Source: Myxococcales bacterium (GTDB lineage Bacteria > Myxococcota_A > Polyangia > Polyangiales > DASUME01). Taken from it: a stretch of DNA of 64,000 nucleotides. Shown here piece after piece: positions 46,734 to 62,324 of the stretch. Every line of letters starts with the position of its first letter. Within the stretch, counting starts at the first letter, position 1. Below the pieces are notes generated by a model. That model was not told the DNA's origin and made no database searches. It saw nothing but the letters and a program-made list of their open reading frames with translations. The position numbers and the translations under genes were made by a program. The stretch covers positions 2,368,001 to 2,432,000 of the forward strand of contig JASGJH010000001.1 in the NCBI GenBank assembly GCA_047601445.1, in the 5' to 3' direction.

Positions 46734-48305
46734 TCAGCGCGCAGACTTGGGCGCCGGCTGGAGCGTGATGCTCAGCTCCGCCACCGCACGACCAGTAGGG
46801 TTGGCCACGAAGTCGCTCGGCGCCACGACCTTGACCTGCGGTACATGCCCCTTGAGGTAGACCAGGATCTCCTGCGTGCTCTCGAGGGGTAGGTTCTCGA
46901 TGCGGGCCTCCGGCGCGAAGCCCACCAGCTGATAGATTTTGGCGCCCTTGGGCGTGGTCACGATGCGCACCGTGCCGAGCCCCCCTTGCGGGCTCCCCAC
47001 CTGCATCGGCATCTGACTGGGGCCGAGCTCCAGCGCGGCTTCGGGCGGCGCCTTCGGACCAAGTTGCATGGCAATCTCGAGCCGCGCGCCCTCCGGTGTG
47101 CGCTCCCACTCGGCTTCGGGTGCCACCACCAAGCGGCTCGGCGCGAAGCCTTCCATGGTGGCCACGAACTCTTGCGCTACCCCGATGGGCACGTGCGGAA
47201 CGTTGACTGGACCGCGGCCCAAGAAACGCAGCACCTGCGTACGCTCCGGTTCGAGGTGGATCACCAGGTCGCCCGCCTTGGGAGCCGCGGGCGCGGGTTT
47301 GGGCTCGGGCGTCGGTGCCGCGACCTCGGGCGCCTTGCCGAGTAGGCGATCGATGGCTTCCGGGCGCATCACGAAGGTGGCGGCTCCGAGGCCGACTGCG
47401 AGCCCCAAGAAACCCAGACCGAGCCACAGGCCCTTGCCCTGGCTCGGACGGATGGAGGCGCCCGGAGGCAGCGACCCGAAGCGCGGCTGCGATGAGCTCG
47501 GGGCGCGCAGCTGGGCGGGGACGTGCTTGCGCGGCGGAGGCGCGGCGCTCATCGGCGTCATGCGCGGAGCCGCCGGCGGCATCGGGTCCATGCGCGTTTC
47601 GATGTGAATGTTCGCCAGTGGCCTGCCCTCGCGGTCCTCGAAGGAAAGGTCGCCACTCCGATCGCCGATCTCCTCCACGGGTTCGCGAATCGTCGCGTCG
47701 CGGGCGCGACCGGTGGGATTGCTGCTCTCGCGGAGCTGATGCGGCGACGTGGGCTCGTCCTCGCGCTGCGGAACGGGATCCGGGCTCGCGTCACCGCCGA
47801 GCAAGGCGCTCAGCTCCGAGTCGAGATCTTGAAACGTCGGCGCCGCACCTGCCCGTGGCGACAAGCGTTGATCGGCCTGCACTTCGCGCACCATGCGCGC
47901 GAGCACCCTCCGGGACGCGTTGCGGTTGAGCGGTACCAGCGAGGCCTCGAGATCATCGCGCAGCTGGTTCAACGACCAGATGCCGCCGCGCGGACCTTCC
48001 TCGACCAGCCGCATCAAGGCTGGCGCGGGCGCGGGACCGGCGGCCACCAGCAGCGAGGTCAGGTCGCGGTGCAGCGCGCGCGCGCTGGTCCGCTCGTCGC
48101 AATCTGACGCCTCCGCCAGAGCGACTGCCCCGTCCTCCGAAATCTCGATGGTGGACAGGGAGAGCAGACAGGGACCGCTGGAGAGCAGCTGCTCGCAGGC
48201 CTCGAGGATCACGAAGGTGCCGATCTCCGCGGGCAAGCGCGTCTTGAAGCGCGTCAAGCTGCGCAGCAGTTCTTCGGCTGTGACGCGGCCCGGCCCCGTG
48301 CTCAT
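46734..48305 (-). CDS. Membrane protein: degenerate kinase C-lobe-like N-terminus, TM, periplasmic PEGA-like beta domains
   Basis: ATG overlaps the hisF stop; LPAEIG.FV..E....[40 protein letters not shown]. Confidence 0.55.
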
Positions 48306-49118
48306 GCCTTGGGCCCCTGGGCCTTGATGGCGCGCTGCGCCTCGCTGGGGGGGCGCACGCGTACGCCCTGGGACAGCAAGTAGTCCTTCACCTGCGCCAC
48401 GGTGTAGGTCCCGTCGTGAAAGATCGAGGCGGCCAGAGCCGCATCGGCCAGCGCATCGCGGAACCCGTGAGCGATGTGCTCGAGGTTGCCCACGCCGCCC
48501 GAGGCGATCACCGGGATGCTCACACGCTCGGCCACGGCCCGCGTGAGAGCCACGTCGTAGCCGTCCTTGGTGCCATCGCGATCCATGCTCGTCAGCAGGA
48601 TCTCCACCGGCCCCGAGCTGCTCGATGCGGTAAGCCCACTCCACCGCGTCGAGCCCCTCGTTGGTGCGTCCGCCGTGAGTGAAGACTTGCCAACGCGGAG
48701 CCTCGCCCGGGCCACTCACGCGCTTGGCATCGACCGCGACCACGATGGCCTGCGATCCGTACGCTGCAGCCACATCAGCCACGAAGTCGGGGTTCCGCAC
48801 GGCCGCGGTGTTGATCGAGACCTTGTCGGCACCCGCCATCAACAGGTCGCGCACGTCTTCTCTCGCGCGCACGCCGCCGCCCACCGTCAACGGCGCCGCG
48901 ATGTTCTCCGCAGTGCGCTCCACCACGTCGAGCAGAATGCGACGCTGATCGCTGGAGGCCGTGATGTCCAGGAACGTGATCTCATCAGCGCCCATGGCGT
49001 CGTAGCGCAGCGCGCACTCCACCGGATCGCCCGCGTCGCGCAGGCCGACGAAGTTGATGCCCTTGACGACACGACCCGCCTTCACATCGAGGCACGGGAT
49101 AATGCGCTTGGCGAGCAC
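48302..49118 (-). CDS. hisF: Imidazole glycerol phosphate synthase cyclase subunit; +1 frameshift at about 48605
   Basis: [25 protein letters not shown]; second frame [29 protein letters not shown]. Confidence 0.93.
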
Positions 49119-52551: not shown

Positions 52552-53574
52552 ATGCTGTACTGCCGCCCTCGCCTCCCCAGCTTCGCCGATCGCACGAGCT
52601 TCGCGCTGAGCCTCGGTCTGCTCTTCGCGAGCGCCGGCTGCGGCGACTCCGCGGGACCTGGTCCTAGCCACGCGAACCCAACCGTGGGCAGCCCCTGTCA
52701 GGCCAAGAGCGACGAATGCGGGCCCGATCGGGTGTGCGCCGAGGAGCTTACGGGCGGGGCCGCCTACTCCATCCTGTCCGATCCCCTGCCTGCCCCCGAG
52801 GGCTACTGCTCGGCCACCTGCTCCTCAAACGCCGATTGCGGCGAGCGCGGGGTGTGCTTTGGGCGTGGGCTACTGGGCAGCGGCGGCGAGTGTCGTCGGG
52901 CCTGCAAGAGCGCGGCGGATTGCGGACAAGGGCTGGAGTGCGCCACGGCAGCCGAGCTCGCCAGTCCCCTGCTCCCCGACACCTGTCAGCCCCTGCCAAC
53001 CCCCGACACCCTGGGTCCCAACCAGACTGGCGCGCGCTGCGGCGAGGACGCCGATTGCGGCGATGGCTACTGCAAGCAAGCCAGCGACAAGCGCGGCGGC
53101 TACTGCAGCGGTCTGTGCATCGCCGACGCAAACTGCGGCCAGGGCGGCGTGTGTATCCGCGGCATCTACGGCGCCCGTGGCAGCTGTGAAGAGGCATGCC
53201 AGACCGACGCCGATTGCCAAAACGATCAAATGGGCTGGGGCTGCGGCCCTGACAAGCTCTGCGTCCGCAAGGCCGAGCCGTTGCCCTCCGTCGGAGAGCC
53301 GTGCAGTTCGGCCAGCGAGGAAGACGACTGCGGAAGCGGCTCCTGCCGTACCCAGGGCCTGTCAGGCGAGACCTATCCCGGCGGTTACTGCATCGGCAGT
53401 TGCAACGACGACAACGACTGTGGCGCGCTCGGGGTGTGCATCAATGAGCTCACCTGCCTGCGTTCCTGCCAGGACGACACCGACTGCCGCCCGGAATACA
53501 AGTGCCAGGTGCATCCGCAGGCCACCGGAGACAGCCGCGACGACCTCATCTGCTTCCCGCGGCCCAAGCACTGA
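52552..53574 (+). CDS. Cys-rich tandem-repeat lipoprotein
   Basis: Lipobox SAGC; three units G..C...C....C...G.YC...C....DCG..GVC....C...C....DC. Confidence 0.8.
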   Translation: MLYCRPRLPSFADRTSFALSLGLLFASAGCGDSAGPGPSHANPTVGSPCQAKSDECGPDRVCAEELTGGAAYSILSDPLPAPEGYCSATCSSNADCGERGVCFGRGLLGSGGECRRACKSAADCGQGLECATAAELASPLLPDTCQPLPTPDTLGPNQTGARCGEDADCGDGYCKQASDKRGGYCSGLCIADANCGQGGVCIRGIYGARGSCEEACQTDADCQNDQMGWGCGPDKLCVRKAEPLPSVGEPCSSASEEDDCGSGSCRTQGLSGETYPGGYCIGSCNDDNDCGALGVCINELTCLRSCQDDTDCRPEYKCQVHPQATGDSRDDLICFPRPKH

Positions 53575-53584
53575 CCCACGCGGT

Positions 53585-54970
53585 TCAGGGCCCAGGCCCG
53601 CGCGTGATCCAGGGCTTGTCCGCGAACCCATCTTCGGCTTGGGTGAGATCGAAGGCGGGATCGATCAGACGTGCCGGGGCGCGTCCGTTGAGCACCGCGA
53701 GAGCGTCGGCGAACACGGCTACATCGTGCCCCTCAGCGCGCTCGCGAGCGGCCAAGTAGTGCGCGAACGCCAGGATCAGATCGGGCTGGGTCGCCATGGC
53801 CTTGGTCTGCGATTGACTCAGGTAACGGCGCGGAAAGACCACGCGCCGCTTGCCCGTATCGCGATCCACGAGCACGAACTCGGTGCTGCCCGTCTTCTCG
53901 ATCACCATCACGTGCCAGGCGAAGCGATAGCCCTGCTCGGTCCACAGCAGGTTTCCTGAGTACGCGAAGTGCCGCAGCGGAAGCACGAGTTGGAGCGCCA
54001 TGTAGCAGCCCATGACGAGCCGCTCGATGGCGCTGAGGGAGCGTCCTGACGATCTGACTTCGAGCGCACCGAACCAGCGCGCCGGCAAGAACCTCCGGGG
54101 CCAATCGGGCGGGAAGAACAGCAGCGCGTTGACCACCATCAAATAGGGGAAGATGCCGATCTCGAACAAGCGCGCAGTGAGCCCGTGAAAGAACGTCAGC
54201 ACCAAGAAGGCCGGGACGCGCGCGCGACGCCACGAAAGCCAGAAGGGGATGCTCAGATCGAACAGGGCCCCGAGCCAGCTCATCAGCACCGCGAACCAGG
54301 GCTGCACGAACAAAGCGCCGAGCAGCGGAAGGTCCGCATTGGCCGCGAGCCAGGTGCGGAGCGGCTGACCCAGGACGAGCCAGTCGGACTGCAGCTTGGC
54401 TACGCCGGCGAAGAAGTAGACGAGGCCGACCTGAAAGCGCAGTAGGTGCAGCCACCAGGCCGGGATGCACGCGGGGCGCGGCTTGCGCCAGGCATCGATG
54501 GAGAGCGCATTCGCAGCGGGCGCGAAAGCGAGCAGCAGGGTCAGCAGACTGACCAGATAGTAGTGATTGAGATAGTAAGTGGCGTCGAGGAGATGGACGT
54601 AGCTGAAGAGCGCGCAGAACAACGCGCATGCGAGTCGCGTGAAGCAGCCGAAGCAAATCGCCAGAGCCAGTACACCGAGTGCCGCGAAGATCGCGTAGGC
54701 CCAGGGGCCGGGCGCAGGCAACCAGGTGAACCCGAAGTACGGCAAGAACAACCGGGGCTCGACGTAGTGGGCCCCCACGAGGCCCTTGCTCGCGAAGCGC
54801 ACGATGCCCCCGAACAACAGCACCCCGAACAGGATGCGATAGACGGCCAGGCTCGCCGCGTCGACGGGGGATGGCGAAACGAAGCGAGCGACCAAGCGCG
54901 AGACCCAGCCCGCGCTCTCCGAGCCAGCGCCGCCAGCATTGCGAGCGGTTCCGAGCTCCCCTTCGCCCAT
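53585..54970 (-). CDS. HTTM-domain / vitamin K-dependent gamma-carboxylase-like membrane protein
   Basis: ASLAVYRILFG, YLNHYYL, YFFAGVAKLQSDW, WTEQGYRFAWHVM, QPDLILAFAHYL. Confidence 0.88.
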   Translation of the reverse strand: MGEGELGTARNAGGAGSESAGWVSRLVARFVSPSPVDAASLAVYRILFGVLLFGGIVRFASKGLVGAHYVEPRLFLPYFGFTWLPAPGPWAYAIFAALGVLALAICFGCFTRLACALFCALFSYVHLLDATYYLNHYYLVSLLTLLLAFAPAANALSIDAWRKPRPACIPAWWLHLLRFQVGLVYFFAGVAKLQSDWLVLGQPLRTWLAANADLPLLGALFVQPWFAVLMSWLGALFDLSIPFWLSWRRARVPAFLVLTFFHGLTARLFEIGIFPYLMVVNALLFFPPDWPRRFLPARWFGALEVRSSGRSLSAIERLVMGCYMALQLVLPLRHFAYSGNLLWTEQGYRFAWHVMVIEKTGSTEFVLVDRDTGKRRVVFPRRYLSQSQTKAMATQPDLILAFAHYLAARERAEGHDVAVFADALAVLNGRAPARLIDPAFDLTQAEDGFADKPWITRGPGP

Positions 54971-56115
54971 CAGTCCGAGTCGCTGTAGCCGAAGCCGATG
55001 CTGGCCCCGAGCGCGCCAGCGACCTCCATCACCAGCGTGCTCTTGACGTCGCGCGTCTTCTGATAGGCGTTTTGGATCGGCGTGACATCACCCACCAGGG
55101 TGGTGCGGAACGGCGGCGGGATCGTGTCGACCGCGGCGATGGCAGCATCGAGTGCGGCCAAGAAGCGCGTGTCGGCGTCGGGATTGCTGGCGCGCACGGC
55201 CTCCGAAAGAGAGTGCCCACTGCCCTGCCCGTACTGGCAGGTGTAGATCGCCTTGAGCCCGACGAGGTTGTCGTGGAGCGCGGCGTTGGTGCCGTCGCTA
55301 CGCGGAGCCTCTTCGAACTCGGGGTGGATGGCGCCATTGCTGTCGATGCCGAGCGGCTTGGCGAACTTGTTCATCACCATCAGCTCGGCCAGATACAGCA
55401 TGCCCGTGAGGATCTCGTCGATGCCGTCGCGCTGACGCTCGAACGCGCCATTGCCGAGGCCGGCCTCGCCGAGATCGTGGGCATAGCCCGCGTCCGGCGA
55501 GCCCCAGGCCGCGCGCAGCTTGCCGCACTTGTCCGCGAGATCCTGGGCTTGGCTGTGGAGCAGCGCCAAGCGCCGCACACCGAGCGTCTCCTCGGTCAGG
55601 CGCGCGAGCACGGCGTCGTTGCCCTGGGCGCTGTCGAACAGCGAGTACTCGATGCCCGGGAAGCCGCGCATGTTGGCGCCCACCTTGGTGACCGCATCCA
55701 AGTCCACGGCTCCGCTACCGGTCACCAGCATCTCGATGCGGTCGTTGGCTGCGGGCCAGCTGTCGATGGTCTCGCCCGTGACCGAGATGTCCTGGCTCGG
55801 GCCGATGTAGAAGGCTTGGCTCTGATGCCAGGTCCCGCGCGCCGTGCGGAAAGCCGCCTGCGCCGCGCCCAGTGTATCGAGCGAGGGCGTGGCCTCCAAG
55901 GCAGTCACGGCCGCGACCAGCACGCTGGTTTGCGCCTGCAGGTCGTCGAGCACCTTGAGCATCACCACCGAAACCGTTTCGCGCAGGACCTCCTGACGCA
56001 CGGTGTCGGGCTTGTCCGGCTCGACCGCACACGCCTGGAACAGCGCAGCGGCGCCGCCGCCTACCACCGGGAACAGGCCAACCACCAACAACAAGTCGCG
56101 ACGTGACAGCTTCAT
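54970..56115 (-). CDS. Imelysin-family (Peptidase_M75-like) Tat lipoprotein
   Basis: SRRDLL twin-Arg motif plus LFQAC lipobox; IDSWP; RGFPGIEY; C-terminal GF..SD.D. Confidence 0.8.
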   Translation of the reverse strand: MKLSRRDLLLVVGLFPVVGGGAAALFQACAVEPDKPDTVRQEVLRETVSVVMLKVLDDLQAQTSVLVAAVTALEATPSLDTLGAAQAAFRTARGTWHQSQAFYIGPSQDISVTGETIDSWPAANDRIEMLVTGSGAVDLDAVTKVGANMRGFPGIEYSLFDSAQGNDAVLARLTEETLGVRRLALLHSQAQDLADKCGKLRAAWGSPDAGYAHDLGEAGLGNGAFERQRDGIDEILTGMLYLAELMVMNKFAKPLGIDSNGAIHPEFEEAPRSDGTNAALHDNLVGLKAIYTCQYGQGSGHSLSEAVRASNPDADTRFLAALDAAIAAVDTIPPPFRTTLVGDVTPIQNAYQKTRDVKSTLVMEVAGALGASIGFGYSDSD

Positions 56116-56161
56116 GATTCCCAGATCCGTCGAAGCGGGCGGGGCCGCCTGCGAGCAAAAT

Positions 56162-57559
56162 TCACAGCGAGCCCAGGAATGCGAGCAGCGCTGCGCGCTC
56201 TTCCTTGGACAGTTTCAAGACCTCATCGCGCGCCGCCTGGGCTTCGCCACCATGCCAGAGCACGGCCTCCATGAGCCCGCGTGCGCGCCCGTCGTGCAGG
56301 AAGTATTCGTGGTGGTTGACCACCTTGACCAGTCCGATGCCCCACAGTGGCGAGGTGCGCCACTCGCTGCCAGTGGCCTCGAAGTCCGGACGGTGATCCG
56401 CCAAGCCCTCGCCCATGTCGTGCAGCAGGAGATCCGTGTAGGGGCGAATCGTGTGATTCTCGAGTTCGGGGAAACCCGCCAAGGGCCCGGTCTTCATCAT
56501 GCTCACGTGGCAGCCGGCGCAGCCTAGGTCGTTGAAGATCTGCTTGCCGTGCAACACCTCGGGCTTCTGCCAGTCGCGCCGCGCAGGCACCGCCAGCGTG
56601 TGCATGTAGTGAACCACGCTGGACAGCGCGGAATCCGAGACCTCCGGTTGTCCATCCTCTTCGCCGGTCGGCTGCTCCAGACAGAGGGTCTCTGCGGGCG
56701 TGCACTCCTGGCCATGAAACATGCTCGAGCTGATCCCCATGTCGCCGTTGAAGGCTCCCGCGGACTGCTGTTCCAGCGAGGGCTGATTGGCCTTCCAACC
56801 GAAGCGCCCGACGGTCGGCATGCTCGCGCGCACGTTCCACACGTGGTTGATGCGGCCCGAGATTCCGTCGCCATCCTGATCGTCGGGATCCGCGAAGCCC
56901 TCGAGCGTGCTGTCGGGCACCGCCGCGAGCAGGCCCAGTCCGAACACCGCCTGAGCCACGCGCGGCGAGAGCATGACGTCGCCCGCCATGGGGCCATAGG
57001 CCAGCTGCTCCACGGTGTACGTAGGCTTGCGCAGGCTGAAGGGTTCGCCGTCGGCGAAGCTGCCAGGAACCTCTTCGTATTGAATGGTGACCTGGGCCTC
57101 GGGCATCACCTTGAGCACGCCACGATCCTGGATCTGCCCACCGTACGTGGGCTCGGGCATGGGTCCGCCGTGCGCGTCCATGCCAGGCACGCTGATGCGC
57201 ACGAGCATGGAGAGCATCTGCTCGCCGGGCATCTCGGGCGGCCGTCCGCGGCCGTCCTTGAGGTGACAAGCCGAGCAGTTGGTGGCGTTGAAGAAGGGCC
57301 CGAGGCCGTCGAACTGCTTCACCGACGCGGGCGCCGTCACCCAACCGCGGTTGAAGATCGCGTTGCCCAGGAAGAACTCGTCCGCGCTGTCGCCAGTCAA
57401 AAGCGGGAGGTCCTGGCCAAACGCCATGCGCGTGGCATCGAACACCGTGGCGGCACCGCCCGAGTATTGCTCCTCGGGCTCGGCACCTGGCGCACCCTTG
57501 TCATCCCCACACGCCGACAGCAACAACGCGGCGATGATCACGGGCGCGCTACGAATCAC
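56162..57559 (-). CDS. Di-heme oxidoreductase (DHOR/DUF1111-like) lipoprotein
   Basis: Lipobox LSAC; GLGP.FN..CSACH, GRFGWKA, CAGCH, YTDLLLHDMG, WRTSPLWG, LHDGRAR. Confidence 0.9.
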   Translation of the reverse strand: MIRSAPVIIAALLLSACGDDKGAPGAEPEEQYSGGAATVFDATRMAFGQDLPLLTGDSADEFFLGNAIFNRGWVTAPASVKQFDGLGPFFNATNCSACHLKDGRGRPPEMPGEQMLSMLVRISVPGMDAHGGPMPEPTYGGQIQDRGVLKVMPEAQVTIQYEEVPGSFADGEPFSLRKPTYTVEQLAYGPMAGDVMLSPRVAQAVFGLGLLAAVPDSTLEGFADPDDQDGDGISGRINHVWNVRASMPTVGRFGWKANQPSLEQQSAGAFNGDMGISSSMFHGQECTPAETLCLEQPTGEEDGQPEVSDSALSSVVHYMHTLAVPARRDWQKPEVLHGKQIFNDLGCAGCHVSMMKTGPLAGFPELENHTIRPYTDLLLHDMGEGLADHRPDFEATGSEWRTSPLWGIGLVKVVNHHEYFLHDGRARGLMEAVLWHGGEAQAARDEVLKLSKEERAALLAFLGSL

Positions 57560-58777
57560 AGTTCCTCCGACGGCTTCTCGAGCATCACGGAGAGGCCCAG
57601 GGCCACGGCCGCCTTCTCGACATCACTACCCACGACTTTGAGCGCCTTTATGGCATCCAACATCGCGGTGCGCTCGGGTCCACCCTCCGGAGAGGTGATT
57701 ACAACGTCGATGGGCTTGCCCGTGTTTTGTAGGTCCACCAACGCCTGGAGCTTTTCGACGGAGGTTTCAATGTCGGCAGTCATCTGTGCGGCCAGGCTCG
57801 GATCGACGGCTTTCACCACCTCATCGAGACCCACGCCATCCATGCTCCCGTAGCGGCCGAGCCAGAGGTTCTGAATGCCCACGCCGTCCCCATGCAAATC
57901 CGACGCGGTGGTGTCGGAGAAACAAGAGTGCTCGTCCTCCTGGCTGCGGTTCTTGTAAGCGACGGTCATGCGCTCGCCCGAGAGTTCCGCGTTGGCCATG
58001 GATCCGAGCGACACCAGGAAGTCGGAGATGGCGGTCTTCCGGGCCTCCGGGCTGCCCACGCCGAAGCTCGCCTGGTAGTTGTCGCTCTTGCTGGGATCCC
58101 ACTGGGCGGCGACCTCCTGCAAGTCGGAGAGCAGCAAGTCCGTGACGATGCTCAGGTATTGCTTGCGACGCGCCTGGTTTTCGGCCGTGCCACCCACCTC
58201 GAGATAGTCGGTGTAGGGGCGCTTGCCCGCGCCCAGCCCGGGCATTTCATCGTCCTGGCCCCAGAGCAGGAACTCGATCGCGTGGTAGCCGGTGGAAATG
58301 GCTTCCTCACCCGCAGCCGTGTTGGCGGCCTTGAGCACTTCGGTGGTCAGCTGAGGCGTGTTGGTGGTGTCGTTGATCAGGCCGGCGGTGGCGTCGTCGC
58401 GCACGTAGTCGATGTAGTTCTCATCGAGCGGCCACGCGTTGATCTCGCCTTCGGGTCCCGTCTCGGAGTTGTCGATGGGGCCCTCGTAAAAGCGAAAGAT
58501 TCTCGCTCGGGCCGTAGGGCAAGCGTGCGGCGATCCAGGCGTCCTTGGCGGCCTGCTGCGTCTCGGCCGACGGCGCAGCCAAGAAGGCGTCGATTGCGAC
58601 TTTCAATTTCTGAGCAGTGGTGACGACGTCGGTGTAGTTCGCGTTGACCAGCTGCTTGTAGTTGGCGATGGCCTGCTCGGCCTGGACTGCGGGAAACTTC
58701 GAGGAATCTTCGCCGTCGCCGCAGGCGGCGAGCAGCGCGAGGGAGGCACAGGAGAGCGTCAGGGTACGAAAATGCAT
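57556..58777 (-). CDS. Imelysin/IrpA-like iron-regulated lipoprotein; +1 frameshift at about 58500
   Basis: Lipobox LAAC; corrected SEIFRFYEGPID..INAWPLDE.YIDY; TGYHAIEFLLWGQD; EDEHSCFSD. Confidence 0.88.
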
Positions 58778-58789
58778 GGCGGTCATTAC

Positions 58790-58811
58790 TGATATCGACA
58801 TTCAGCGTCAA
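58790..58811 (-). promoter_or_regulatory. Imelysin operon promoter with a weak Fur-like box
   Basis: TTGACG (minus strand, 58806-11); TGATATCGACATTCA (58790-804) matches 9 of 14 positions of TGATAATnATTATCA. Confidence 0.3.
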
Positions 58812-58841: not shown

Positions 58842-58883
58842 TTGCTCTCATATGAAGACCTTCATATGATGCCCTTCATCTGA
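58842..58883 (+). promoter_or_regulatory. TetR promoter overlapped by two tandem palindromic operators
   Basis: TTGCTC-N17-TATGAT; perfect TCATATGAAG-AC-CTTCATATGA (58848-69) and imperfect copy (58862-83). Confidence 0.75.
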
Positions 58884-59493
58884 TGGCTCCCCCCTCCCAG
58901 CGCACCCTGCACAAGGCTCAGACCCACGCCCGAATCGTGGCGTCGGCCGTGCAACTGGTGCGTCGAGCAGGCTTGGCCGCCGCCAGTGTGCCGCAGGTGA
59001 TGGGCGGAGCCGGCATGACGGTGGGCGGCTTTTATGCGCATTTCCGCTCCAAGCAGGCCATGGACGCGGCCGTTCTCGCGCAGGCCATGCGCGAGGTTCG
59101 CGAGGAATGGCTGCTGGGGCTGGACCGCACGCCAGGCCTCGATTTCCTGGCGCGCGCGGTGAAGCGCTATCTCTCGCCCCGGCATCGCGACAACATCGAG
59201 ACCGGCTGCGTTTTGCCGTCCACCATGTCGGAGCTCACGCGCGCCGACCGCGTCACACGCTCCGCCATGGCCGAGGGTGTGGAAGAAGTGGTGCGCATGC
59301 TGGCGGAGCACGCGCCGGAGCACGAAAACGCGACTCCCCGCGAGCGCGCCCTGGCAGCCCTCGCCCTGTGCATCGGTGGACTCACCATGGCCCGCGCGCT
59401 GCGCGGCACGCCGTTAAGTGACGAACTGCTGAAGGCCTGCGTGAAGTGGGCCCTGCCCGAACCGAGTGCCCAACCCAGCAGAAAGAGCCCACC

Positions 59494-59497
<4 letters not shown>
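58883..59497 (+). CDS. TetR/AcrR-family regulator
   Basis: HTH ..SV..VM..AGMTVGGFYAHF.SK. Confidence 0.92.

Positions 59498-62324
<2,827 letters not shown>

Follow-up and report, generated by a model that had tools for sequence, protein, structure and literature searches.

We analysed a window of 64,000 nucleotides from a Myxococcales bacterium (contig JASGJH010000001.1), in which four minus-strand genes at 53585-58777 encode imelysin A, DHOR, imelysin B and a GGCX-like carboxylase homologue (Table 1). The first-pass annotation had described four co-directional genes with overlaps at 57556-59 and 54970, and this holds; DHOR and imelysin B are separated by a 46-nt gap. The imelysin-DHOR-imelysin order of the PA4370-73-type operon is present here in one operon. 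DUF1513, to which we take PA4373 to belong, is absent as a fourth gene, and a profile search of the host genome retrieved no PF07433. The idea that DUF1513 fills the carboxylase slot elsewhere in the host phylum was rejected, since no PF07433 match lies beside an imelysin. When compared to P. aeruginosa PA4370-73, V. cholerae VC1264-66 and Leptospira lruB (PMC3143127, PMC13066512), the first three genes, their order and motifs and, probably, the iron regulation are the same, whereas the fourth gene here is a carboxylase homologue, not DUF1513.

Table 1. Features of the imelysin-carboxylase locus (positions within the window)
Feature	Position	Strand	Basis or remark
Fur-box-like palindrome	58788..58806	.	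11 bp upstream of imelysin A start
Imelysin A, GxHxxE lipoprotein (ICMP/LruB type)	57556..58777	-	PF09375, GYHAIE; 1-nt frameshift near 58500
DHOR di-heme c-type cytochrome lipoprotein	56162..57559	-	PF06537 336 bits; lipobox LSAC
Imelysin B, GxxxxE (GFPGIE) IPPA/PA4372-type lipoprotein, Tat-like signal	54970..56115	-	PF09375 141 bits
Imelysin B C-terminal tail, D-S-D-stop; candidate substrate or docking motif	54973..55008	-	Conservation, predicted disorder
GGCX-like integral membrane protein (HTTM + lumenal domain), 461 aa	53585..54970	-	PF05090 261 bits, PF22777 157 bits

The profiles proposed for checking the HTTM/VKGC, imelysin and DHOR domains all matched (PF05090, PF22777, PF09375, PF06537). 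For imelysin A, the reported GYHAIE motif was confirmed. A point the first-pass annotation did not mention is that one surplus base shifts the reading frame, so that the PF09375 match of 46 + 176 bits is spread over two frames. The same kind of break interrupts a hisF-like gene near 48.6 kb, which makes a long-read error the likely cause. The protein has the GxHxxE motif of the ICMP/LruB family and a lipoprotein signal (LAAC), and it is not a LruB equivalog (NF047655 LruB, 117 bits vs. a cut-off of 850). The lipoprotein with two CxxCH motifs proved to be a DHOR, with the motifs at C95 and C347; C95/C98/H99, C347/C350/H351 and H417 are invariant among 24 homologues. It showed a weak profile match to the di-heme peroxidase 3o5c (E 0.0025), and phmmer retrieved no homologue of solved structure at E <= 0.1.

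The operon is likely an iron-repressed uptake unit, in agreement with the iron-regulated context initially suggested. A PWM built from 29 kin sites scores the Fur-like box at 15.7, a value reached by 29 of 9.5 million genome positions; several other sites with the best scores lie in front of the genes for TonB, a siderophore-interacting protein, a TonB receptor, PepSY-TM and ExbB. The box matches the E. coli consensus at only 9/14 positions, and the operon may be under Fur control. According to Table 4 of PMC5609570, the Riemerella anatipestifer orthologues RAYM_09779-09794, which include the same gene pair of imelysin B and carboxylase, all show induction (2.1-3.1) when iron is low; the pair appears there as a listing. 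Induction persists in a fur mutant, which makes Fur control doubtful in Riemerella.

The fourth gene encodes a full-length GGCX homologue; the homology had first been proposed from an alignment by eye with the catalytic Lys and His regions. Its scores of 261 and 157 bits compare with a Pfam cut-off of 27.7 bits for the HTTM and VKGC lumenal domains, and phmmer aligned it to human GGCX 50-501 (E 3e-38). The AF2 model (pLDDT 92.5) superposed on most human GGCX chains with a Foldseek TM of 0.78-0.82, and all 16 matches at E <= 0.001 were GGCX (TMq 0.65-0.82). AGVAKL..DW aligns with human K218 (K192 here, codon 54395-97) and NHYYL with human N159/H160 (N135 and H136); W197, D238 and F274 correspond to W223, D263 and F299, and H287 is also kept. 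Across 105 imelysin-linked enzymes, N159, H160, F299, W223, K218 and H287 are kept in all and D263 in 104. In GGCX, N159, H160 and F299 bind the carboxylate and CO2 (PMC12647623). The positive-inside pattern suggests that the catalytic loops face the periplasm. Thus, the protein shares with human GGCX/VKGC (PDB 9wfc, 9l21, 9bvk) the fold (TM about 0.8), the HTTM and lumenal domains, the catalytic residues and, as predicted, a non-cytoplasmic catalytic face.

It differs from the animal enzyme in other aspects. The first Lys of the human KK (K217) is A191 here and Ala/Gly/Ser/Thr in 105/105 linked enzymes, and N290 is T265, with Asn in 0/105. The alignment stops at human 501 (residue 454 of 461 here), leaving out the C-terminal third with the propeptide clamp region. 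Hence, three traits of animal-type Glu gamma-carboxylases are absent: K217, N290 and the region beyond residue 501. The substrate-binding Y395 is Y348 here and variable among the 105 (M 42, Y 32, F 27). Linked enzymes have a remodelled substrate channel in which R349 and K359 are almost invariant, and the protein contains the 374-418 segment missing from viral forms that only epoxidise. The bacterial clade also differs in its iron-uptake context and, for most of the hosts checked, in the lack of a VKOR partner.

The conserved unit is the pair of imelysin B and carboxylase, not all four genes. Conservation of the HTTM gene next to imelysins was expected from the first-pass annotation, and the neighbourhood survey bore it out. 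In 151 host-phylum genomes, 39/50 PF22777 genes had an imelysin within 3 kb, directly upstream for 37; the pair was adjacent for 29/37 carboxylase genes in 151 Bacteroidota genomes and in 72/80 named loci. Conversely, the enzyme lies directly downstream of 29/30 Bacteroidota imelysins scoring 60-140 bits. All three full-length carboxylase paralogues of the host genome are paired with an imelysin, and the pairing spans five bacterial phyla. In Spirochaetota, both genes occur in the same 11 of 101 genomes, in trans in 10; in presumed Leptospira genomes the carboxylase is 35-38 kb from the imelysin operon or unlinked. One branch of the enzyme tree (99*) holds all 35 sampled imelysin-linked enzymes together with the presumed Leptospira ones. 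Among 14 control genomes, PF22777 was found in 0, PF09375 in 4 and PF06537 in 3. No viral contigs were found in the search for the system, and no carboxylase fusion proteins among 7,999 longer candidates, which is weak evidence.

Only imelysin B is constant across the 72 named loci; DHOR is present in 14, DUF4856 in 33 and a TonB receptor in 40. Two architectures were observed, the commoner being DUF4856 - imelysin B - carboxylase - TonB receptor and the other the four-gene unit. DUF4856 gave no profile match with imelysin B, and Pfam searches of 46 members did not bear out an ESM Atlas lead to a Fea1-like protein (0.85-0.87).

Imelysin B carries the signal SRRDLL plus FQAC. The Tat signal first described is a Tat-like motif here, and it is not a family trait: a loose pattern finds the motif in 20/124 imelysin B sequences. 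The IPPA/PA4372 family is defined by a GxxxxE motif with the His replaced (Pro in IPPA) in a second imelysin downstream of DHOR (PMC3143127); imelysin B fits with GFPGIE and a near-invariant G151. Its AF2 model (pLDDT 91.8) matched 4ecg, 7xrx and 3pf0 in Foldseek. Among four matches at E <= 0.001, IPPA (3pf0) had the lowest rmsd (3.3) and reached the C-terminus, and the IrpA-type 4ecg/3n8u were better by E-value.

The tail of imelysin B ends in D-x-D-stop in 120/124 sequences, and D381 is the sole invariant column among 95 homologues. In three Dehalococcoidia imelysins the chain runs 1-3 residues beyond D-x-D, which means that not every member has its free terminal carboxylate there. Residues 379-381 have pLDDT < 50 in AF2 and are predicted to be disordered; in the IPPA crystal, residues 384-389 are unmodelled and the primer encodes ...STDGD. 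Covariation over 95 gene pairs placed 17 channel-tail column pairs in the top 50, where within-cluster shuffles gave 8-13 and 11-19. Tail Asn and Met348 match in 39/40, but the enzyme tree explains this by one change, and there are only 3 independent pairs. The covariation is mostly shared ancestry, and we do not count it as support.

We also inspected 19 imelysin B loci chosen for lacking an adjacent carboxylase. In 16, a His-box fatty-acid hydroxylase lies in or beside the carboxylase slot and imelysin B still ends in D-x-D; 11 of these 16 genomes have no full-length carboxylase anywhere. Another locus, L139, lacks both enzymes, and its imelysin B retains the tail. A tail specific to the carboxylase was therefore rejected. 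The fatty-acid hydroxylase occurs in no carboxylase locus (mutual exclusion), the imelysin B tree shows at least 4 exchanges between the two enzymes, and there are in-frame fusions of the hydroxylase with the TonB receptor (8 proteins) or imelysin B (2). In this hydroxylase family the di-iron site is cytoplasmic, and the enzyme could hardly modify the same exported tail.

Our best explanation, to which we give a probability of roughly 0.35, is that this likely iron-repressed uptake operon encodes a carboxylase that adds a carboxyl group to an Asp of the imelysin B D-x-D tail, creating an Fe(III) ligand. The enzyme would take menaquinol, O2 and CO2 at the periplasmic face of the inner membrane, and the carboxylated Asp of the disordered tail would become a malonate-type ligand. 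Upstream capture modules would be interchangeable: imelysin A and DHOR here, DUF4856 and the TonB receptor in most kin. The tail as substrate and iron binding by the product are hypothetical; menaquinol is a probable cofactor, and futalosine-route menaquinone genes are present in the host genome. VKOR was found in only 3/32 carboxylase-bearing Bacteroidota genomes, so a low-turnover modification fits better than a steady quinol flux, and the remodelled channel with R349 and K359 would suit an acidic peptide. The first-pass proposal that the HTTM protein carboxylates the acidic imelysins thus survives in narrower form, for imelysin B with D-x-D as the candidate site; general acidity was dropped. 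Tail carboxylation is weakened by the 16 hydroxylase loci and L139, which keep the tail without an adjacent carboxylase, and the variable Y395, the lost K217 and N290 and the absent C-terminal third count against it.

In a somewhat less probable but serious alternative, the substrate of the carboxylase is not a protein but a carboxylic acid that is small or bound to the membrane, such as an acyl-amino acid, an aminolipid or a short acyl-peptide. The product would be an iron ligand handled by imelysin B, the hydroxylase of kin loci would make its hydroxy-acid version, and D-x-D would be a docking or metal-binding motif. We know of no iron ligand of this type. Mutual exclusion, the repeated swaps and the in-frame fusions would all be explained, and the lack of conservation at Y395 fits as well. 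Giant viruses carry fusions of a GGCX-like domain with a sterol desaturase, MloH works on a non-ribosomal intermediate, and imelysins have a small-molecule pocket and bound no Fe3+, heme or Zn in thermofluor assays (PMC3143127). However, no recurrent biosynthetic or acyl-transfer genes were identified beside the unit among the main annotated clusters of about 140 loci, and the active sites of carboxylase and hydroxylase lie on opposite membrane faces.

Rather improbable, in our view, is an uncoupled menaquinol oxidase/epoxidase giving electrons or activated oxygen for periplasmic iron mobilisation, like the PepSY-type reductases beside other TonB receptors, with nothing carboxylated. The GGCX fold is not known to offer a path by which electrons could reach an external acceptor. 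A generic role of this kind would fit the exchange for a different O2-using redox enzyme of the membrane, and so would Ala/Gly/Ser/Thr in place of K217, the proposed coupler of epoxidation and substrate. Epoxidation uncoupled from substrate, with substrate activation missing, is likewise described for the Leptospira orthologue (10.1101/2025.02.09.637231). Nevertheless, N159, H160 and F299 are invariant, and since VKOR was not found in 29/32 Bacteroidota carriers, continuous epoxidation would use up the quinone pool. This reading includes the proposed menaquinol link to the di-heme protein, which is not supported as a core role with DHOR in 14/72 loci and missing from locus 3 of the host genome. 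It is still less probable that the carboxylase has its target in another unit protein (TonB receptor, DUF4856, imelysin A) or in some unrelated member of the iron regulon, or that it is a co-regulated accessory that the cell can do without. Imelysin and DHOR operons do occur without it (PF22777 in 0/14 controls), presumed Leptospira carboxylases lie apart and L139 lacks the enzyme, but none of those unit proteins is constant across loci and the enzyme directly follows 29/30 of the Bacteroidota imelysins at 60-140 bits.

Among known systems, presumed Leptospira enzymes share the branch of the imelysin-linked ones and lack K217, and their genomes carry imelysin-DHOR-imelysin B ending in DGD; the difference is that the carboxylase is encoded away from the operon. 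The Leptospira orthologue reportedly did not carboxylate Glu peptides (Rishavy et al. 2005), which, like its uncoupled epoxidation, counts against tail carboxylation; we found no proposal for its natural substrate in the literature searched. MbnH/MbnP offer a parallel: the gene next to a TonB receptor encodes an enzyme that alters its partner protein to make a metal site, for copper and through kynurenine; the enzyme there is a di-heme protein and not a carboxylase. MloH (malonomycin), a bacterial VKDC orthologue, alpha-carboxylates Asp according to papers citing Law et al. 2018, which speaks for tail carboxylation; its substrate is a PKS-NRPS intermediate, and we liken it by its described function. 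Chondrinema litorale has the same gene pair (OQ292_RS24855-24835, RefSeq), as annotation only. No paper describing the pairing was found in main texts (supplements of iron transcriptomes may list the operon in further species), nor, in the literature searched, a natural substrate of bacterial GGCX homologues apart from MloH.

Bacterial GGCX homologues are widespread, and imelysin operons are tied to iron uptake without a mechanism. With one enzyme clade and one partner in five phyla, and an invariant Asp in a disordered tail, both questions could be put to a single mass-spectrometry experiment. Should the tail prove not to be the substrate, the recurrent exchange with the di-iron hydroxylase would still say that the uptake system uses an O2-dependent membrane enzyme, of which we found no description in the literature searched. 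Tail carboxylation would give an orphan enzyme a testable natural substrate. On a bolder and slightly more doubtful extension, the main iron-linked clade, including the Leptospira enzyme, would be a protein Asp carboxylase whose product, the carboxylated tail, serves as a malonate-type chelating arm and thereby as a siderophore that is gene-encoded and tethered. If true, bacteria would have a first native protein substrate for vitamin-K-dependent carboxylation, and iron capture a new mode.

The four minus-strand genes of the first-pass annotation are present as described: imelysin A, a di-heme c-type cytochrome lipoprotein (DHOR), imelysin B, and a homologue of the vitamin K carboxylase GGCX, hereafter the carboxylase. 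The nearest named homologues belonged to Polyangiales and other Myxococcota, which makes a myxobacterial host probable. The imelysin A ORF is split across two frames near 58500. We infer a long-read sequencing error, since a hisF-like gene in the window is likewise frameshifted and reads through to the ORF that follows, apparently another single-base error, and the genome is one 9.5-Mb contig. Convergent with the carboxylase gene lies a Cys-rich repeat protein gene (lipoprotein-like signal, weak Myxo_Cys_RPT match, no Pfam), which was not recognised among the conserved neighbours. Genes for a TetR regulator, an enoyl-CoA hydratase, and a probable dienoyl-CoA reductase diverge from the operon, and the TetR gene shares a 105-bp intergenic region with it.

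Features of the window, of the subject genome (G000, contig C1), and of other numbered loci (L)
Feature	Position	Strand	Remark
Imelysin A	58777-57556	-	operon gene 1
DHOR	57559-56162	-	operon gene 2
Imelysin B	56115-54970	-	operon gene 3
HTTM + VKGC-lumenal protein, 461 aa	54970-53585	-	operon gene 4
hisF-like gene	48300-48720	-	frameshifted
Cys-rich repeat protein	52555-53574	+	
TetR and enoyl-CoA genes	58883-62324	+	
Locus 2 (L159)	G000:C1:6660548-6667717		second imelysin A-DHOR-imelysin B operon, carboxylase convergent
Locus 3 (L158)	G000:C1:9177k-9185k		DUF5122 propeller lipoprotein (frameshifted)-imelysin B-carboxylase-TonB receptor
rpsD copy (L154)	G000:C1:5887858		
DUF4856 protein	L121:4488-5723	+	
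Hydroxylase fusion	L129:5914-8166	-	in frame, to imelysin B or TonB receptor
Hydroxylase fusion	L130:1592-3916	+	as L129
Hydroxylase fusion	L134:2458-5664	-	as L129
Hydroxylase fusion	L146:6472-9693	+	as L129

The conserved core is imelysin B plus the carboxylase, because this pairing recurs in the surveyed genomes and loci while the other partners vary; imelysin A with DHOR, or DUF4856 with a receptor, are alternative modules. The subject genome has three full-length carboxylase paralogues, each adjoining an imelysin B. In 151 host-phylum genomes (the subject genome included, one sub-threshold PF22777 match left out), an imelysin lay ≤3 kb from 39/50 PF22777 genes and directly upstream on the same strand of 37/50. 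In 151 Bacteroidota genomes, one lay as close to 29 of the 37 PF22777 genes. Thus, the HTTM-imelysin adjacency, for which a neighbourhood survey had been proposed, is conserved. Among named carboxylase loci (best 80 of 594 matches, two of them duplicates of loci already sampled), 72 had imelysin B, and four of the remaining eight begin at a contig end. As lower bounds, given short contigs, 14 of these 72 carried DHOR, 33 DUF4856, and 40 a TonB receptor; DHOR and DUF4856 occurred together at none of the 80. The four-gene unit proposed initially therefore exists here, with only its imelysin B-carboxylase core conserved. Named hosts were Myxococcota, Bacteroidota, Chloroflexota, Bdellovibrionota, and Spirochaetota, and RefSeq annotates a five-gene form in Chondrinema litorale.

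In 101 Spirochaetota genomes, imelysin B and the enzyme occurred in an identical set of 11. The two genes are apart in ten of these, by 35-38 kb in the three genomes with a short distance on one contig. The ten are presumably Leptospira and, being kin, amount to about one observation. In a FastTree of 52 enzymes, one branch (99*) held 35/35 linked enzymes, five from presumed Leptospira, and four unlinked; eight divergent unlinked enzymes fell outside it.

Several loci showed further features. Locus 2, with a divergent PhoX-like gene, has a carboxylase with the lumenal E345 and R349 equivalents changed. Locus 3 is without DHOR, with tonB divergent and a urease operon next door. Several myxobacterial genomes (L056, L060, L065, L100) have the order imelysin A-DHOR-imelysin B-TonB receptor-carboxylase. 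One DUF4856 protein (L121) resembles algal Fea1/low-iron-inducible proteins (ESM Atlas 0.85-0.87), a likeness not confirmed by Pfam. Five more distant HTTM genes of the subject genome (L004-L008) had no PF22777 match, and none is beside an imelysin.

Imelysin B ends in D-x-D-stop in 120/124 sequences; the exceptions are three from Dehalococcoidia with 1-3 extra residues and one frameshifted. Imelysin A is without this terminus. D381 was the sole invariant column in an alignment of 95 imelysin B sequences, and the AF2 model is confident for the body (91.8) and below 50 for residues 379-381. Termini that are invariant yet unstructured typically serve to bind an enzyme, a metal, or some partner. 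For IPPA, the accessible text of PMC3143127 gives residues 384-389 as disordered and a cloning primer encoding ...STDGD.

The carboxylase homologue belongs to the GGCX homologous family. It aligned with human GGCX 50-501 (E 3e-38), and at Foldseek E ≤ 0.001 its AF2 model (pLDDT 92.5) matched GGCX and nothing else (16 chains, TMq 0.65-0.82). Residue equivalences came from pairwise alignment with human GGCX and residue roles from the accessible part of PMC12647623. K218, N159, H160, W223, H287, and F299 (human numbering) were kept in 105/105 imelysin-linked homologues and D263 in 104/105, in a set biased by drawing its 80 loci as the best of 594 matches to patterns derived from the same clade. 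The alignment of the catalytic Lys, suggested earlier by eye, thus holds. The K217 position was Lys in 0/105, N290 was mostly Thr, and Y395 was Met, Tyr, or Phe; within the stretch matching GGCX 392-406, E345, R349, E358, and K359 hardly vary. The homologue does not qualify as an animal-type GGCX, because it lacks K217, N290, and the C-terminal third. Since Lys+Arg per 10 residues is 0.1-0.65 in the loops bearing N135/H136, K192, and F274 (query numbering) and 1.7-4.0 in loops 2-3, 4-5, 6-7, and 8-9, the catalytic face is predicted from sequence to be periplasmic. In the genome, two genes of the futalosine route to menaquinone were found, MenB had no match above cut-off, and a single VKOR gene lies unlinked.

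A different enzyme can stand beside imelysin B. From 42 imelysins not near a carboxylase, we sampled 20 among the lower-scoring ones; 19 were imelysin B, with the D-x-D terminus in 19/19. At 16/19 loci, imelysin B had as its immediate neighbour a gene of the fatty-acid-hydroxylase family whose His boxes are intact. Of the other three, one carried a carboxylase truncated at the contig end, one itself stopped at a contig end, and one had neither enzyme. This hydroxylase was found at no carboxylase locus, and a full-length carboxylase was absent genome-wide in 11/16 hydroxylase-locus genomes. The imelysin B tree requires at least four partner changes on starred branches. Eight scanned proteins fuse the hydroxylase in frame to a TonB receptor, and two fuse it to imelysin B. 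In the tabulated fusions, an internal signal-like segment connects the inner-membrane di-iron fatty-acid hydroxylase with its partner, either imelysin B or an outer-membrane TonB receptor.

Regarding iron, an upstream Fur-like palindrome scored above mononucleotide shuffles, a lenient control, at 34/75 loci. With a matrix from 29 of the 34 sites, window 58788-58806 ranked within the genome's top 29 positions and the locus 3 site second genome-wide; the same scan found no such site at locus 2. Further high-ranking sites lie upstream of genes for TonB, a siderophore-interacting protein, a TonB receptor, PepSY-TM, and ExbB, but others stand before unrelated genes and a copy of rpsD. The box at this rpsD (S4) copy, third-best in the genome, is possibly a Zur site. 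[quoted passage not shown] The Leptospira imelysin-DHOR-imelysin trio is dipyridyl-induced, according to the available text of PMC13066512.

We suggest, at a probability of about 0.35, that the enzyme carboxylates the imelysin B tail, in which case the tail of this exported lipoprotein would be the substrate. This is preferred because the enzyme keeps the carboxylate- and CO2-binding residues and a segment missing from viral epoxidase-only forms, as the accessible part of bioRxiv 10.64898/2026.03.26.714578 describes them, and because the only partner that stays constant is an exported lipoprotein whose Asp tail is free. MloH, as papers citing it describe it, is a precedent for Asp chemistry and counts in favour. 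VKOR was found in 3/32 Bacteroidota carboxylase carriers vs. 28/151 Bacteroidota genomes overall, a scarcity that suits a low-turnover modification. The hydroxylase swap is better explained by a lipid or small-molecule substrate than by tail carboxylation; overall, we consider such a substrate somewhat less probable than the tail.

Less probable again is a pure redox role. The loss of K217 would fit it (bioRxiv 10.1101/2025.02.09.637231, available text), but the invariant N159 and F299 and the missing VKOR do not. The absence of DHOR from most loci also argues against it, and against the earlier proposal of a link from the menaquinol pool to the di-heme protein as the core role. Covariation analysis did not discriminate between carboxylation, lipid or small-molecule, and redox readings.

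Earlier work had established imelysin-DHOR-imelysin operons and bacterial homologues of GGCX, and had listed the Riemerella genes in a table. Our literature search, which covered largely open-access main texts, found no description of imelysin B paired with the carboxylase, of its tail, or of the hydroxylase swap. The unit of imelysin B and carboxylase is real and widespread, and the enzyme question raised by this iron-uptake operon is directly testable.
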